The notes below the pieces were generated by a model, which made no database searches, was not told the origin of the DNA, and worked only from the letters and a program-made list of their open reading frames with translations. The position numbers were made by a program, and so were the translations under genes. 64,000 nucleotides of DNA from Chiloscyllium plagiosum (lineage: Eukaryota): contig NC_057749.1 of the NCBI RefSeq assembly GCF_004010195.1, positions 11,389,540 to 11,453,539 on the forward strand. The letters run 5' to 3'. Below, one piece after another: positions 27,471 to 64,000 of this stretch. Every line of letters starts with the position of its first letter. Position 1 is the stretch's first letter.

Positions 27471-27599
27471 TGAATTTTGAAAAAAAAAATCGTTTTTCTG
27501 AAAAAGTCCCAAATTGAAAGATTGTGAACCAGACAGCTCTGTTAAAGAAAGAAGGAAGATAGGAAGCTGCAGGCCAGTCAGCTGTCATAGAGAACATGG

Positions 27600-28390
27600 C
27601 AGAGTCTCATAGAAGTGGTAGTGAAACAATTTGATAAAATGCTGAAGGAGAGAATTAATCTCTACTTATAGAGGCAAGATTTGATCAGGGATAGCCAGCA
27701 TGGCTTTGTCAAATATGTTATCCTAGAAGAGATGGAAATGTGTTGCTGGAGAAGCGCAGCAGGTCAGGCAGCATCTAGGGAACAGGAGAATCGACGTTTC
27801 GGGCATTAGCCCTTCTTCACGCGCTGACTTACCGCGGGGGGAGGTGGGAAAGTGTTCCCCTCGCGCGGGGGTGTGGGGGAAAGAGTATCCGCCCTGATTG
27901 ACGTTGGTGGGGTGAGGCCGGGGCCTCTGTCCCTGTGCTGCGGCTTCGGGCTAATGCCCGAAACGTCGATTCTCCTGCTCCCTGGATGCTGCCTGACCTG
28001 CTGCGCTTCTCCAGTAACACATTTCCATCTCTGATGTCCAGCATCTGCAGACCTCACTTTCTCTTCATGTTATCCTAGAAATTTGATTGAATGTTTTGGG
28101 GAGGTGACCAGGTGTGAAGATGAGGATAATACAGTAGATGTAGTTGTGGAGATGTGGAAGTGCTAGTAATAAGTAAGGTTGCGGATGACACAAAGGTTGG
28201 TTGGCCGGTGGTTGACAGTGCAGAAGAAGGTCTTAGGTCACAAAAGGAGGACATAAATGGATTGCTCAGATGGAATTTAACGCTGATAAATGTGAAATGA
28301 GGCTTTTTGCAAGCAGTAAGAAAACAATGAATGATAGGATTCTCGGAAGCTCAGAGGATTCACGGGGTGTATGTTCACAATCCCTGGAGA
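27600..28390 (+). mobile_element. Degraded CR1 RT fragment (host of the chimeric insert)
   Basis: LIRDSQHGFV, KVADDTKVG, MEFNADKCE. Confidence 0.75.
27729..28066. mobile_element. Chimeric Penelope insertion: inverted arms enclosing a captured promoter segment
   Basis: Perfect 14-bp TSD atgttatcctagaa (27715-27728 / 28067-28080). 27816-27952 is the reverse complement of 28473-28609. Confidence 0.95.
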
Positions 28391-28399
28391 TAGAACTCG

Positions 28400-29060
28400 G
28401 AGGTGAAGCAGGAGACCGAGCCCGGAACTCCATTACCGATTTAGGAGTTTTAATCCCGAAATTACATACCCGAGCCCGAAGCCGCAGCACAGGGACAGAG
28501 GCCCCGGCCTCACCCCACCAACGTCAATCAGGGCGGTTACTCTTTCCCCCACACCCCCGCGCGAGGGGAACACTTTCCCACCTCCCCCCGCGGTAAGTCA
28601 GCGCGTGAACACTACCCCGCCCCTCTCCGCCGTCAATCAGCGCGGGGGGAATACTTTCCCACCTCCCCCCGCGGTAAATCAGCGCGGGGACACTGGCCCC
28701 GCCCCGTCCCCACCGCCTTCAATCAGCGTGGGGCGTGACCAGATGACGGGCCGGGAGCGCTCCTATTGGTCAGTGCCGGGAGCCTCGCGGCCTTGTTGTT
28801 TTGTGCCCGTGGAACCGGCCGCCGGAGTTCGAGAGGATAGCAGTTTGGAGCCTAGTAGACACGGGGATTGTCCCAGCTGAGTGGCTCTTTCACTATCGCA
28901 CAAGGATGCCCGCCTGCAGTCTGTGAGCCGGAGCAGCATTGCTGACCGAGGCCAGCATTCGTGCTTTTCCCTTAGAGAACTGCGAAAACAAGATGTCCGC
29001 CCGGGCGGCCGGAGTAGTGGGCAAGGTATGGGGTGGGGGGCGAGGGTGGCGTGTGAGGGG
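28400..29060 (+). promoter_or_regulatory. CpG-island promoter and 5' UTR
   Basis: Only extended non-transposon CpG-rich stretch in a CpG-depleted window. GC boxes (ccccgcccc), ATTGG at 28765, repeated caatcag motifs. Weaker CpG enrichment continues to ~29550. Confidence 0.9.
28993..29025 (+). CDS. TJP1: First coding exon MSARAAGVVGK, probably tight junction protein ZO-1
   Basis: ACAAGATGTCCGCC start, 11 codons, phase-0 donor AAG|gtatgg. Matches my recollection of the vertebrate TJP1 exon 1 (MSARAAAAK, then STAMEETAIWEQH). The match is short and exon 2 was not found in the window. Confidence 0.7.
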
Positions 29061-29252
29061 AAGAGAGAGAGAGAGAGCGAGAGGAGGGGGGAGGAAAGAG
29101 GTAGGAGGAGATTGGTTAGGAGAAAGACAGAGGGAGATTTGTGGGAGTGGAAGGGATCGGGGAGGAAAGTGGGAGAGAGATGGGGAAAAGTTAGTGGAAG
29201 TGAGTGTAGTTGGTTGGGGGAGTTGGAAGTGAGGAGGTCAGTGAAAGGAGAG
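29056..29252 (+). repeat. Purine-rich (GA/GGA) low-complexity tract at the start of intron 1
   Basis: (GA)n followed by G/A-rich sequence. Confidence 0.8.
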
Positions 29253-30532
29253 TGATGGTGAGTCCCTGTCGACGCGACAGGTACTGGGTTGTTCCCACCG
29301 GGCTCTGGCGGAATCCTGCTCTGACACTGGAGGAGTTTATGGTTGAGGGAAAGTCTGGGGAATGGGGTGCAGTTTAGCGGAGGGTACGCCAGGGACACGG
29401 CCACTTTGGTCAGGCTGTACAACGGGGTGGACCAATGATAAGGGAATTGAGATGCATTAACTGCAACTTAACTCCGGGTCGAGTTTCTTGTCATCTCTCG
29501 TTTACTGCTCTCAACGTCGAATGATATTGCTGGGTCCAGGTATCGCCAATGTAATGGTTTACAAATGTTCACTTTGCTGCTTGAACTTAAATAGTCTTTC
29601 CGGATGTTTTAGAGGTCAGTGATGTTTAGTAAGTTGGCTTCTTATTTGTAGGAAGGCGTTTGGACAGGGCACCATTGTCCTCTAGTGAGGTCTGGTTTCA
29701 CTTCGATGATGAAACTTTATGGTATGCGCTAGAGGAGAAAGGGTGCAACAAATATTTCTGCTGCTACCTAAGTCGTCATGAAACTAGTAGTCGATGTATT
29801 GAGTTTCCATCAAGATGTGGCTACAAAAGCACATATCTAAGCTAGTTTGTATTTGTACTGTGCGTACCTTGAATTGAACTCGATGACAGCTGAACACAAT
29901 TTTGCTGGTGCTATCTTTTTATTAAACTCAACAAATGTCTTTAAGTGCTCAGATCTTGCATGGTCAATACATTCTTAGTAATTCCATTTTGAACTGGAAA
30001 AGTATAGTCTCCGTAGGAAAGTAATCAAACTTTGTTTAACTGACTTGAAGGATTGATTTGAGCTCAGTATTTTAGGAGTGAACGGTTATAGTTAAGTCTG
30101 ATACTTCTTGTTAAGTTTCTGTGTTTGCAGATTCTTTTCGCGAGGTGGGAGCATGTGAAAATTGATCGTTCTGCACAGATAGGCAGTGGAAAATAAACAC
30201 ATGCCTTTGTTCCATGTGCATCAACTGACACTTCTATAACATTCTTTAAGATGGTACTGTACAAACAAAGAGAGATCTTGAATTGAAAATAGGGAGAGAT
30301 ATGGCAATAAAAGCCAAGTGTTGGATAAATTCGGGTTTTGACAGCATCTGTGGTTTGAGAAACCCAAGTTCATGTTTCAAGTTGATAGGTCTCTTCTGAA
30401 TGAATGCTCTAACATTCACAATACTTAGCTTTTATTTGAGAGATGTAACCATATTGAAGAATTTTGGAAAATGTGATGGATGAAGAGCACAGCAGACTTG
30501 AGTTGCCGAAGTGGGTGGCATAAGCTGAGACT

Positions 30533-53164: not shown

Positions 53165-53499
53165 TCTCTTAACCTTACCTTTTCATATACCCATCCAGAT
53201 ACCTTTTAAATGTTGTAATTGTACCAGCCTCCACCATTCCTCTGGAAGCTCATTCCACACACGCACCATCCTTTGTGTGAAAAAGTTGCCCCTTGGGTCC
53301 CTTTTAAATCTTTCCCCTCTCATCCTAAACCTATGCCGTTTAGTTCTGGACTCCACCAGGGAAAAGACCTTGTCTATTTATCCTATCCAAGCCCCTCGTG
53401 ATTTTATAAACCTCTATAAGGTCACCCCCTCAGCCTCTGACGCTCCAGGGAAAACGGCCCCAGCCTATTCAGCCTCTTGCTATAGCTCAAACCCTCCAA

Positions 53500-53692
53500 G
53501 GAGAAAGTGAGGATTGCAGATGCTGGAGATCAGAGCTGAAAATGTGTTGCTGGAAAAGCGCAGCAGGTCAGGCAGCATCCAAGGAGCAGGAGAATCGACG
53601 TTTCGGGCATAAGCCCTTCTTCAGGAATGCTTCTTGGATTCTCCTCCTTGGATGTTGCCTGACCTGCTGCGCTTTTCCAGCAACACATTTTC
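53500..53692. mobile_element. Penelope inverted-arm insertion
   Basis: TSD agctcaaacc[c/t]tccaa (53484-53499 / 53693-53708). Intact hammerhead-like core at 53597-53624 on minus. Confidence 0.9.
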
Positions 53693-55545
53693 AGCTCAAA
53701 CCTTCCAACCCTGGCAATATCTTTTGTAAATTCTTTCTGAACCCCTTCAAGTTTCAGAACATTCTTCCGATAAGCAATTTTGTTGTCACCTTCAAACTTA
53801 CAAACCATGCCTCCTATATTTACGTCTAAATCATTTCTATAAGTGACAAACAAAAGTAGACCCAATACCAATCCCTGTGAAACATTCCTGGTCGCAGGCC
53901 CCCAGTTCAAAAAACAACCCTCCACCACCACTTTGTATCTCCTACCATAAAGTGAATTTTGTATTCAATAGGCAAGCTCACCCTGAAACCCAAGTGATTG
54001 TAACTTTACTATTTAGTCTACCGTGTGGAACTTGTCAAAGGCTTAACTAAAGTCCGAGTAAACAATGAATACCATTCTGCCCTCATCAATCTTCTTGGTT
54101 ACTTCCTCAACAAACTCAGTCAAATTTGTGAGACACAACTTCCCTTTCTCACAACCATGCTGATGATCCCTAATCAATCCTTGCCACTTCAAATGCATGT
54201 AAATCCTATTTTTAAAATCACTTCCAACAACTTGCCCGCCACTGTCAGACTTGCGGTCTGTATTTCCAGGCTCCTCCTCAAAGTATTTCTTAAGCAATGG
54301 CAGAACATTATCCACCCTCCAGTCCTCCACTTGTGTGTATAGATGTACAAATACTTCCGCTGGAGGCTCCGCAATTTGCTGCCTAACTTCCCACAACATC
54401 CTGGATATGCTCAATCAGGTTCTGGAGATTCATCTTCCTTTGTTTTCTAAGCCTCCTGCACTTCCTCTCCTGTAAAGGTGTGAACTGTTCTCAGAAAATG
54501 AGTATTCAATTTCTGAGTTCTTTAGCCTCCATTTCTTTCTCAACAGTAAAAGCTGACATCAGATAGCAATTTAATATCCTTCCATCTCCTGAAGTTCAAC
54601 ACAAAGATAACCTTGTTGATCTTTAAGGAGCCCTACTCTGTCTCTAGTTGCTCTCTTGTTCTTAATGATTTTGTACAATCTTTTGGATTATCTTCAGTGA
54701 TTCTATAGTCATAGAAATCTTCCTGATTTCCCTCGCAAGAAAGACCCTACACTCTTTATACTCTTCGTGAGATTCAATTGTCAATGTCTAACATATAATT
54801 CTTTTTATTCTTGACTAGAGCCTCAATATCTTTATCCATTGTTCCCTAATCTTGCCAGCCTTGCCTTTCACTCTAACAGGAGCATAATGTTTTTGAACTC
54901 TCATTATCACACTTTTGAAGGCTTCCTACTTGTCAGTTGTCTCTTTACCTCTGAACTGTTTATTCCAATTAATTTTTGAAACTTCTTGTCTTAAATCCCT
55001 TAAAATTTGCCATACTCCAATTAAGAAATTTAATTTTTACGGAAGAACTATTTTAAAACTAATGGTATTATGATCACTAGTCTCAAAGTGGTCCCTACCT
55101 AACACATCAGTCACTTGACCTGCCTTATTTCCCAAGAGAAGGTCAAGTTTTGCTCCTTCTCTGATAGAAACATTCACATATTGATAAAGAAAATTTCCTG
55201 GAACACATTTAACAAATTCTTCACCATCCAAGTCTTTAGCACTGGCAGTCCCAGTCTATGTTTGAAAAATTAAAATCCCCTACTATCACAACTTTATTAT
55301 TCTTGCACATATTTGAGATCTCTGTTTTGCTTCATTATTTCCAGCTGACTGTTGGGGGGGACCTATAGTACAATCCCATTCAGGTGATCGTCCCTTTCTT
55401 TCTAATTTTAAGCTATATGTTTTTACTAAATGATCCCTCAGAAATATTTTCTCTAATTAGAGTAGTGATGTTACTCTTAATCAAAAATGCCACACCCCCC
55501 TCTTATCTTGCATCTCTCTCTGTCCTTCCTATAACTCCTAAAACC

Positions 55546-63319: not shown

Positions 63320-64000
63320 TGTCTACTAAGATACCAGATCAGGTGGAAAGTTTATTATCTTTGCTTGCCTAAGATAAAAGGCAAAGGTATATGCCAAGTC
63401 CTTAGTTGCTTAATGGTGACGATGCCACGCTAGAGTTCCGTTCTGAAGAAAGATGACAGCAAATGGACAGTCTCATTTGGTAATTATCATCAGAAAGAGA
63501 CAGTCATGGTCCAGGATGTGGCCATATATCTCATTGATAGTGTGACATTGGATGTTAATGAAAGCCTCCTGTATCTTAGCTTCACAGTCACCAGCAGTCT
63601 GTCTTGATGTTGAAATCTACATTTGTACAGCAAAAGCGGCAGCTGTCATGACCATACAGTAAGATGGTACGGAACAACTGCGACCTGACAGAACACCAAA
63701 CTTCACATCCACTAACCCATCTTAAAAGATTTCTCTACGGTAGTAAAGCCAAGAGACCACATGCTCGGCAGAAGGAAAGGCTGAATAATTTCAACTTTCT
63801 CTTTATCTCAGATGTGTCCTTTGTGTCTCTTCTTCCTGAAGAAGGGCTAATGCCCGAAACGTCGATTCTCCTGTTCCCTAGATGCTGCCTGACCTGCTGC
63901 GCTTCTCCAGCAACACATTTCCATCTCTTTGGCAAGACAATGGCTCTAATTCGGAGCCCCGGAACCTACTCCTTGCTACTTGGGATGGCTCAAATGTACT
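63320..64000 (+). mobile_element. RTE-clade LINE RT fragment
   Basis: TRSGGK, (F)GDDA, VMVQDV, LYGSKA..T.ARQK.RLN.F, WQD remnants. Confidence 0.75.
63831..63929 (+). mobile_element. Young Penelope pLTR insertion with intact hammerhead-like core
   Basis: CTGAAGA-A-GGGC-taat-GCCC-GAAAC-GTC at 63836-63863. Interrupts the RTE. Confidence 0.9.

Follow-up and report, generated by a model that had tools for sequence, protein, structure and literature searches.

An inverted copy of nearby promoter DNA between the two arms of a Penelope-like insertion in Chiloscyllium plagiosum

How does a piece of a promoter come to lie, in inverted orientation, between the two arms of a retroelement inserted upstream of that promoter? 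The question is raised by a locus of Chiloscyllium plagiosum in a 64,000-nucleotide (nt) stretch of contig NC_057749.1 (assembly GCF_004010195.1, forward strand, positions 11,389,540 to 11,453,539), which we call the window and number from its first letter. Here a Penelope-like element (PLE) has left two short arms in opposite orientation, and the filler between them is a copy of host DNA a few hundred base pairs (bp) away. An earlier note on this DNA had described a single recent integration in which synthesis strayed onto that neighboring template. We find that the structure is as described, that its source is unique in the genome, and that shorter locally copied fillers occur at other copies of the same family. 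The composite and its surroundings are laid out as follows.

27560-27714, plus strand: decayed reverse-transcriptase-like repeat (..LIRDSQHGFVK, stops in frame), the insertion target (local alignment)
27715-27728, no strand: left copy of the 14-bp target site duplication (TSD), ATGTTATCCTAGAA (repeat search, 100%; direct reading)
27729-27819, minus strand: antisense PLE arm without tail, arm positions -7 to +84, the G of GGGCTAATG being position 1 (inverted-repeat pair)
27816-27952, minus strand: templated filler, inverted copy of 28473-28609, 136 of 137 positions identical (inverted-repeat pair, genome search)
27948-28066, plus strand: sense PLE arm of 119 nt, starting from GGGCTAATGCCCGAAACGTC, with a 35-nt tail (sequence comparison)
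28067-28080, no strand: right copy of the TSD (repeat search)
28473-28609, plus strand: source of the filler, 393-529 bp to the right of the insertion (repeat pairs)
28473-29030, plus strand: CpG island with the first coding exon, presumed promoter (GC 0.64, CpG observed/expected 0.84)

The two TSD copies found by the repeat search are identical at all 14 positions and enclose the whole composite; neither arm is flanked by a TSD of its own. The same search recovered the arms as an inverted pair (27728-27812 and 27948-28032, 85 nt, 96%), which in register overlap over 84 nt with three mismatches, at arm positions 31, 37, and 68. The left arm terminates at arm position 84 and the right arm at 119, the 35-nt tail (28032-28066) being present on the right arm only. 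Over its 137 nt the filler departs from the reverse complement of the source at a single base (27888), and the identity breaks off at both ends, with no match in the 10 bases past each. At the left junction TTCA (27816-27819) is common to the left arm, whose inner end reads TTCTTCA, and the promoter copy; at the right junction GGGCT (27948-27952) is common to the right arm and the promoter copy, leaving 128 nt of filler (27820-27947) outside both arms. By simple base odds, overlaps of 4 and 5 nt at fixed junctions have chances of ~0.004 and ~0.001. The perfect TSD, the single-mismatch middle piece, and both microhomologies had all been reported in the earlier note, and the anatomy of the composite is confirmed in the reference sequence.

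A whole-genome search of the 3.56-Gb assembly with the 137-nt piece gave four matches, only two of which are full copies: the filler and its source (99%). The third (47 nt, 94%) lies in a neighboring tandem unit of the same promoter, and the fourth (51 nt, 84%) is on a different contig. Other copies of the PLE family run 5' into a different, conserved element sequence and not into this piece, which is not part of the Penelope consensus; nor is it a high-copy repeat. The source, with GC 0.67 and CpG observed/expected 0.83, forms the 5' edge of the CpG island, ~385 bp ahead of the ATG at 28993, and runs into an array of related ~40/81-bp units that extends to ~28731. Because the source sits in this array, the filler amounts to ~1.5 promoter modules duplicated in inverted orientation, and the promoter copy must be the original and the piece between the arms the derived one. 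A GC-rich, CpG-containing promoter module has thus been duplicated and a long inverted repeat created upstream, as the earlier note had it.

That note also called the CpG island a putative TJP1 promoter. The island is there, as is an exon reading MSARAAGVVGK from the ATG and followed by GT at 29026; ZO-1 starts with MSARAA, but TJP1 is still only a putative name for the downstream gene, a search of the window for a second exon with ZO-1-like motifs having found none that could name it. Within the promoter, 28508-28731 holds four to five of the related ~40/81-bp units, with C-runs and TCAATCAGCGCGG-like boxes, and a purine-rich, GA/GGA-rich stretch of low complexity (29030-29260) lies directly past the splice donor of the first exon. 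Between the insertion and the CpG island, a 248-nt contig from a run that we only guess to be RNA matches 28205-28452 with no difference and ends 20 bp short of the source segment.

To what extent is such a structure peculiar to this locus? A genome search with the right arm listed 52 matches from the best 40 of 147 candidates scored. A 17-mer of the arm (with C at position 68) has 22,159 genome copies, and the family numbers well over 20,000. Longer copies carry CCTGAAGA-A-GGGC-TTAT-GCCC-GAAAC-GTC, which by eye fits the minimal hammerhead of PLE terminal repeats as outlined in part of PMC4209133 (CUGANGA, a bulged base, helix II, GAAA, and no helix III). In the window the left arm has an incomplete hammerhead box, its first C being gone, and the right arm has no CUGAAGA box, since it starts at GGGCTAATGCCCGAAACGTC. 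Rfam matched no family in the insertion region and no hammerhead in four canonical family copies; on the palindromes of those copies it gave only hairpin look-alikes of plant and animal microRNA models. At one locus (L032) an open reading frame (ORF) ending ..YIGETGQLLAERFREHL..LGTLQPQGMNSD, a GIY-YIG-like stretch, abuts the arm; Pfam returned nothing useful for this ORF, and its best ESM Atlas cluster (score 0.94) has GIY-YIG on 46% of its members, which is a lead only. The Penelope identity proposed in the earlier note is thus supported by architecture and by a hammerhead-like core read by eye, with confirmation from neither Rfam nor Pfam, and these features support our taking the insertion as a probable 3'-terminal fragment of a PLE, dead on arrival.

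The inverted arms themselves are commonplace. An adjacent inverted partner in head-to-head orientation was present at 13 of 29 loci fetched via the right arm, each with its own flanking repeat; the remaining loci either continue 5' into the conserved longer element or start near CCTGAAGAA. Genome-wide, exact 15-nt cores of one subfamily define 6344 head-to-head pairs with 0-39 nt between cores and 1286 pairs with 40-400 nt; a second subfamily has 262 pairs with 60-400 nt. Short junctions (0-39 nt) are pieced together from element fragments in various ways, as repeated switching would predict, and the inner ends seen in the window, TTCTTCA and GGGC, are also found elsewhere joined without filler. 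PLE insertions often consist of an inverted, 5'-truncated copy with a 30- to 40-bp tail at one end, according to portions of Craig et al. 2021 (PMC8557442), where tandem and inverted PLE structures are called unexplained and the inverted ones are said to trouble assemblies. As far as the copies compared can tell, inverted arms are the ordinary architecture of this family, and only the filler is unusual.

Of 42 head-to-head pairs, 41 have a tail of ~35 nt on one arm and none on the other (on one side in 25, on the opposite side in 16), the lone exception being the inner pair of a scrambled junction. By an automatic test, TSDs of 8-15 bp flank 27 of the 42 pairs, and each of these 27 (TSD ≥8 bp) keeps the one-tail rule, as does the composite in the window. 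We never saw both arms tailed; independent choice of start sites would predict both-tail as well as no-tail pairs. Because exactly one tail is present in 41 of 42 pairs, the two priming events seem to be coupled. Purified PLE protein cuts and extends both target strands, and two internal RNA start sites delimit the tail, in the sections of Frangieh et al. 2024 that treat these steps (PMC11167929). That the window composite arose by a single integration, as first proposed, agrees with the one TSD around the whole, with the lack of arm-specific TSDs, and with the one-tail rule; the view that it is recent is likewise supported.

Many single short copies (L010, L011, L016, L034, and 63836-63930 in the window) begin at one point, CCTGAAGAA, the pattern that a template RNA with a constant 5' end at that position could give. 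One of them, L016, has a stuttered 5' junction with repeated short element pieces between TSD and element.

Differences between the two arms bear on how they were copied. Their states at the three mismatched positions are seen in 12%, 15%, and 28% of 106 arms compared, and the left arm contains no base that is rare among those arms. Since the differences are shared with other copies, and since the TSD has no change and the filler one, the arms may well have been copied from different RNA variants, as sequence comparison suggests. A self-primed hairpin, in which the left arm would be copied from the right-arm complementary DNA (cDNA), is disfavored by the same observations: family variants in the arms, 1 change in 137 in the filler, and 0 in the TSD. 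At arm position 68 the tail-bearing arm has T and its partner C, both in the window and at all 12 scorable head-to-head loci. We rejected this asymmetry as proof of two RNA templates, because it is largely ascertainment: the T form is scarce (its 17-mer has 60 copies, that of the C form 22,159) and the loci were chosen with a T-bearing query. The tail junction follows 10,939 of the 22,159 C copies (49%) and 26 of the 60 T copies.

Is locally copied filler found elsewhere in the family? We surveyed 25 of the 1286 long-spacer sites (the first 15 and the 41st to 50th listed on contig C1), mapping local sources by exact matches in flanks of 1.5-4.8 kb. Most of these spacers are longer asymmetric palindromes of the element, and three contain filler of 17, 22, and 101 nt copied from sources ~90-580 bp away:

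L054: filler of 101 nt, 100% identical to a source 383-483 bp to the right of a 14-bp TSD; direct orientation, tail-arm side
L052: filler of 22 nt, source 562-583 bp to the left; direct orientation, non-tail side; re-enters the element via a 6-nt overlap, GCATAA
L048: filler of 17 nt, source 92-108 bp to the left; direct orientation, tail-arm side; then its own fold-back copy

For the L054 filler the next best genome match is 93%, among the best 40 of 2986 candidates scored. All three fillers derive from non-promoter DNA, on either side of the insertion, and stand in direct orientation; the window filler is the longest of the four and the sole inverted one. The earlier note had proposed scanning the genome for inverted arms whose spacers map nearby, and 3 of 25 sites with filler from <600 bp away are what such a scan yields.

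Other candidates were set aside. Local matches at L037 (12 and 12 nt), L042 (12 nt), and L059 (14 nt) are at chance level; those at L041 (16 and 21 nt), L050 (24 and 12 nt), and L056 (12 and 18 nt) belong to sequence that derives from the element or to recurrent repeats. L037 and L041 each resemble a pair of separate insertions. Fillers at L035 (22 nt) and L045 (~17-26 nt) had no source within 1.5 kb and by eye are element related. Self-BLAST for inverted repeats over all fetched DNA gave nine pairs, none of them new. Foreign-looking spacers also occur at further sites, among them C1:44177711, C1:56422933, C1:70246908, C3:28767288, and C3:125331432.

How, then, was the filler acquired? We think it probable, though far from assured, that two opposed cDNAs were joined by a microhomology-primed template switch onto nearby single-stranded DNA. 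The element endonuclease would cut both strands, 14 bp apart, and each 3' end would prime reverse transcription of element RNA; the inner start site would give the arm that ends at position 84, and the outer start site the arm that ends at 119 with its 35-nt tail. Two cDNAs would then face each other, their ends needing to be joined by a cellular or element polymerase. Usually the joining would be direct, by a few bases of microhomology. Here one 3' end would instead pair, over 4-5 bases, with single-stranded DNA 393-529 bp away in the right flank, be extended by 128-137 nt, be released, and anneal by 4-5 bases to the other cDNA; the 4-5 nt shared at each junction are the trace expected when a 3' end pairs with a new template. 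In the bottom-strand product ..AGCCC is followed by GAAGCC..GCGTGAA, so the template has the sequence of the promoter minus strand. In the simplest geometry the right-hand cDNA (..AGCCC-3') would fold back onto the strand carrying it, which would account for the inverted orientation. The template strand would become accessible through 5' resection or R-loop formation in the CpG island. In the direct-orientation cases the opposite cDNA would anneal to the same kind of exposed 3' strand. We infer the order of events, a template of DNA, and the polymerase; a switch onto sequence ~0.4-0.5 kb away, put forward in the earlier note, is still the simplest reading and is strengthened by the three further cases in the family.

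Several points count against this switch onto nearby DNA. The copies of 128-137 and 101 nt are far above the usual size of polymerase-theta inserts, generally <25 bp in the text excerpted from PMC12426944. Such long inserts would call for a more processive polymerase, perhaps the element's reverse transcriptase (RT), or else make the analogy to polymerase theta loose; an enzyme of this kind, possibly the RT itself, may have made the 101- and 137-nt copies. L054 has little or no microhomology and five unexplained bases at one junction. The survey covered 25 of 1286 sites, and a search of 1.5-4.8 kb would miss distant donors. Antisense RNA is plausible at the source, a CpG-island promoter whose copied strand is G-rich, and sequence by itself separates neither a DNA from an RNA template nor capture at integration from later repair. 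In a comparison with four of 24 public runs (likeness 88), other repeat copies swamped the arms and no contig covered the center of the filler.

Set against known systems, the composite has the likeness of an insertion unit of an endonuclease-bearing (EN+) PLE: a TSD, head-to-head arms, a tail at one end, and a family rich in short, dead copies, with a core that by eye looks hammerhead-like. It differs by 128 nt of host DNA from 0.4-0.5 kb away between the arms, host-derived filler being absent from the published descriptions of these units in the portions of PMC8557442 and PMC11167929 that concern them. Repair is known to yield templated insertions in which a break flank is copied after minimal pairing, as the relevant part of PMC12426944 describes. 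As in polymerase-theta and T-DNA templated insertions, the PLE fillers are copied from the flank of the break with priming by a few bases, sometimes in several rounds (L048 and L052), and in either orientation. The window source, 393-529 bp away and unique in the genome, fits this pattern, as do the switch points TTCA and GGGCT and the GCATAA of L052; none was seen in L054. By length, L048 (17 nt) and L052 (22 nt) lie within the size just cited for polymerase theta, whereas the window filler (128-137 nt) and L054 (101 nt) exceed it, and the ends joined here are retroelement cDNAs, unlike those at polymerase-theta junctions.

In LINE-1 twin priming both strands prime, and one RNA supplies the inverted and the direct part from stretches that do not overlap. 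The resemblance of the composite to such 5' inversions lies in the priming of both target strands, the inverted part, and microhomology at the inner junction. Twin priming of the LINE-1 type on one RNA nevertheless does not fit, because the two arms span the same 84 positions; each arm therefore needs its own pass over the template. RT template jumps to other RNAs are familiar from U6/L1 chimeras and from the end-to-end jumps of R2, and they resemble the present case in that a chimeric insertion arises when synthesis leaves the first template at or close to its 5' end. To our knowledge, the donors in such jumps are abundant, unlinked RNAs; by contrast, all four donors mapped here lie within 600 bp of the target. 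Full-text searches, with subscription journals outside their scope, found no description of host-templated filler between two PLE arms. The type of insertion is known and the type of repair is known, and we found host-templated filler at a PLE arm junction described nowhere in that literature.

The same event could have used an RNA template: the RT would jump to a promoter-upstream antisense transcript or R-loop RNA, copy it to its 5' end at ~28609, and then move to the other cDNA. This is unlikely in our judgment. In its favor, the geometry fits equally well, the promoter minus strand being colinear with the sense arm; the ATG is ~385 bp past the source, which occupies the upstream edge of a CpG island, a place where divergent transcripts commonly start; and the length of the filler suits a processive RT better than polymerase theta. 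The contig at 28205-28452 adds very weakly to this, coming from a run only guessed to be RNA. The other three fillers tell against it: they are direct copies of non-promoter DNA on either side, 90-580 bp away, and an RNA rule would require a local transcript each time, while abundant unlinked RNAs would be expected among the donors. The earlier note left the choice between RNA and DNA open, and so do we, ranking RNA lower because a simpler DNA rule covers local, non-promoter donors on both sides.

Comparably improbable is a two-step history, in which an ordinary TTCTTCA/GGGC junction formed first and a later break at the center of the palindrome was repaired by copying from nearby DNA, primed by microhomology. 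The same inner ends do occur elsewhere without filler, microhomologies suit repair equally, and short-spacer palindromes are fragile. Against this, at least 6344 short-spacer pairs persist in the genome, so such palindromes are mostly stable, and the TSD (0 of 14 changed), the left arm (no rare base among 106 arms), and the filler (1 of 137) appear equally young, leaving little time between two events.

We consider it very unlikely that the structure is an assembly artifact, with a fold-back or chimeric read having placed an inverted promoter copy between repeat copies. No public contig covers 27849-27909 in the four runs (X2, X4, X13, and X14), and inverted PLE structures are known to trouble assemblies, as parts of PMC8557442 attest. 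The case against an artifact rests on features it would not produce: a TSD-flanked, one-tail unit, microhomology at both junctions, and a base difference between copy and source, together with a second locus, L054, of the same layout. A 561-nt contig of X2 matches 28041-28601 with a single difference; only 26 of its letters are in the arm, so it does not bridge the arm/TSD junction. In organism B, a sister species, a contig on 27438-27714 stops exactly at the start of the TSD, with 42 further non-matching letters, and could represent an empty or a different site. Finally, two independent PLE insertions around a preexisting inverted promoter duplication are exceedingly improbable, for while neighbors do occur in a family of well over 20,000 copies (L037 and L041 look so), one perfect TSD surrounds the whole with none per arm, only one arm is tailed, as in single events, and each junction sits precisely at an arm end, with bases in common.

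With a switch onto nearby single-stranded DNA as the preferred reading, these scars bear on how PLEs finish integration. Only the first steps have been observed in vitro, namely, cutting and extension of both strands and use of two start sites, in the results drawn from PMC11167929. Genomic scars offer a view of the last step in vivo, microhomology-primed joining that sometimes strays a few hundred bases, and provide a countable read-out over thousands of insertions in terms of side, distance, orientation, and microhomology. Both long captures (137 nt in the window and 101 nt at L054) come from 380-530 bp past the tail-bearing arm. A bolder idea, and to us a long shot, is that single-stranded nucleic acid up to ~0.6 kb from the target is routinely sampled during the PLE joining step, with the shared position of the long captures reflecting a defined architecture of the intermediate or, at promoters, copying of nascent antisense RNA or an R-loop. 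Such an architecture could be a fixed loop, a resection length, or a second contact of a dimeric element protein. If such sampling were routine, nearby regulatory modules would regularly be duplicated and inverted by PLE insertions. At this locus, GC-rich promoter modules have been duplicated in inverted orientation 0.5 kb upstream of a CpG-island promoter, which also gives a 137-bp inverted repeat; this could matter for regulation or stability, but that promoter modules were duplicated is happenstance and implies no function.

The window holds further traces of retroelements. The decayed repeat at 27560-27714 aligns locally (score 58) with a reverse-transcriptase-like ORF at 54043-54414. A second head-to-head copy, at 53497-53705, has its tail on the left arm, the junction CTTCTTG, and a right arm truncated at approximately position 21, and is flanked by GCTCAAACCCTCCAA and GCTCAAACCTTCCAA. 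Across the family, the sequence ..GTGCAGTGAGAGAGGGACTCA..TAGAGGGAGGAAGAG..GGTTAAAATC recurs in long spacers and beside tail ends (L041:1516-1640, L050:4820-5000, the L045 spacer, and others). It may be the downstream, ORF-proximal part of the element or a preferred target; such recurrence is expected if the element inserts into copies of itself.

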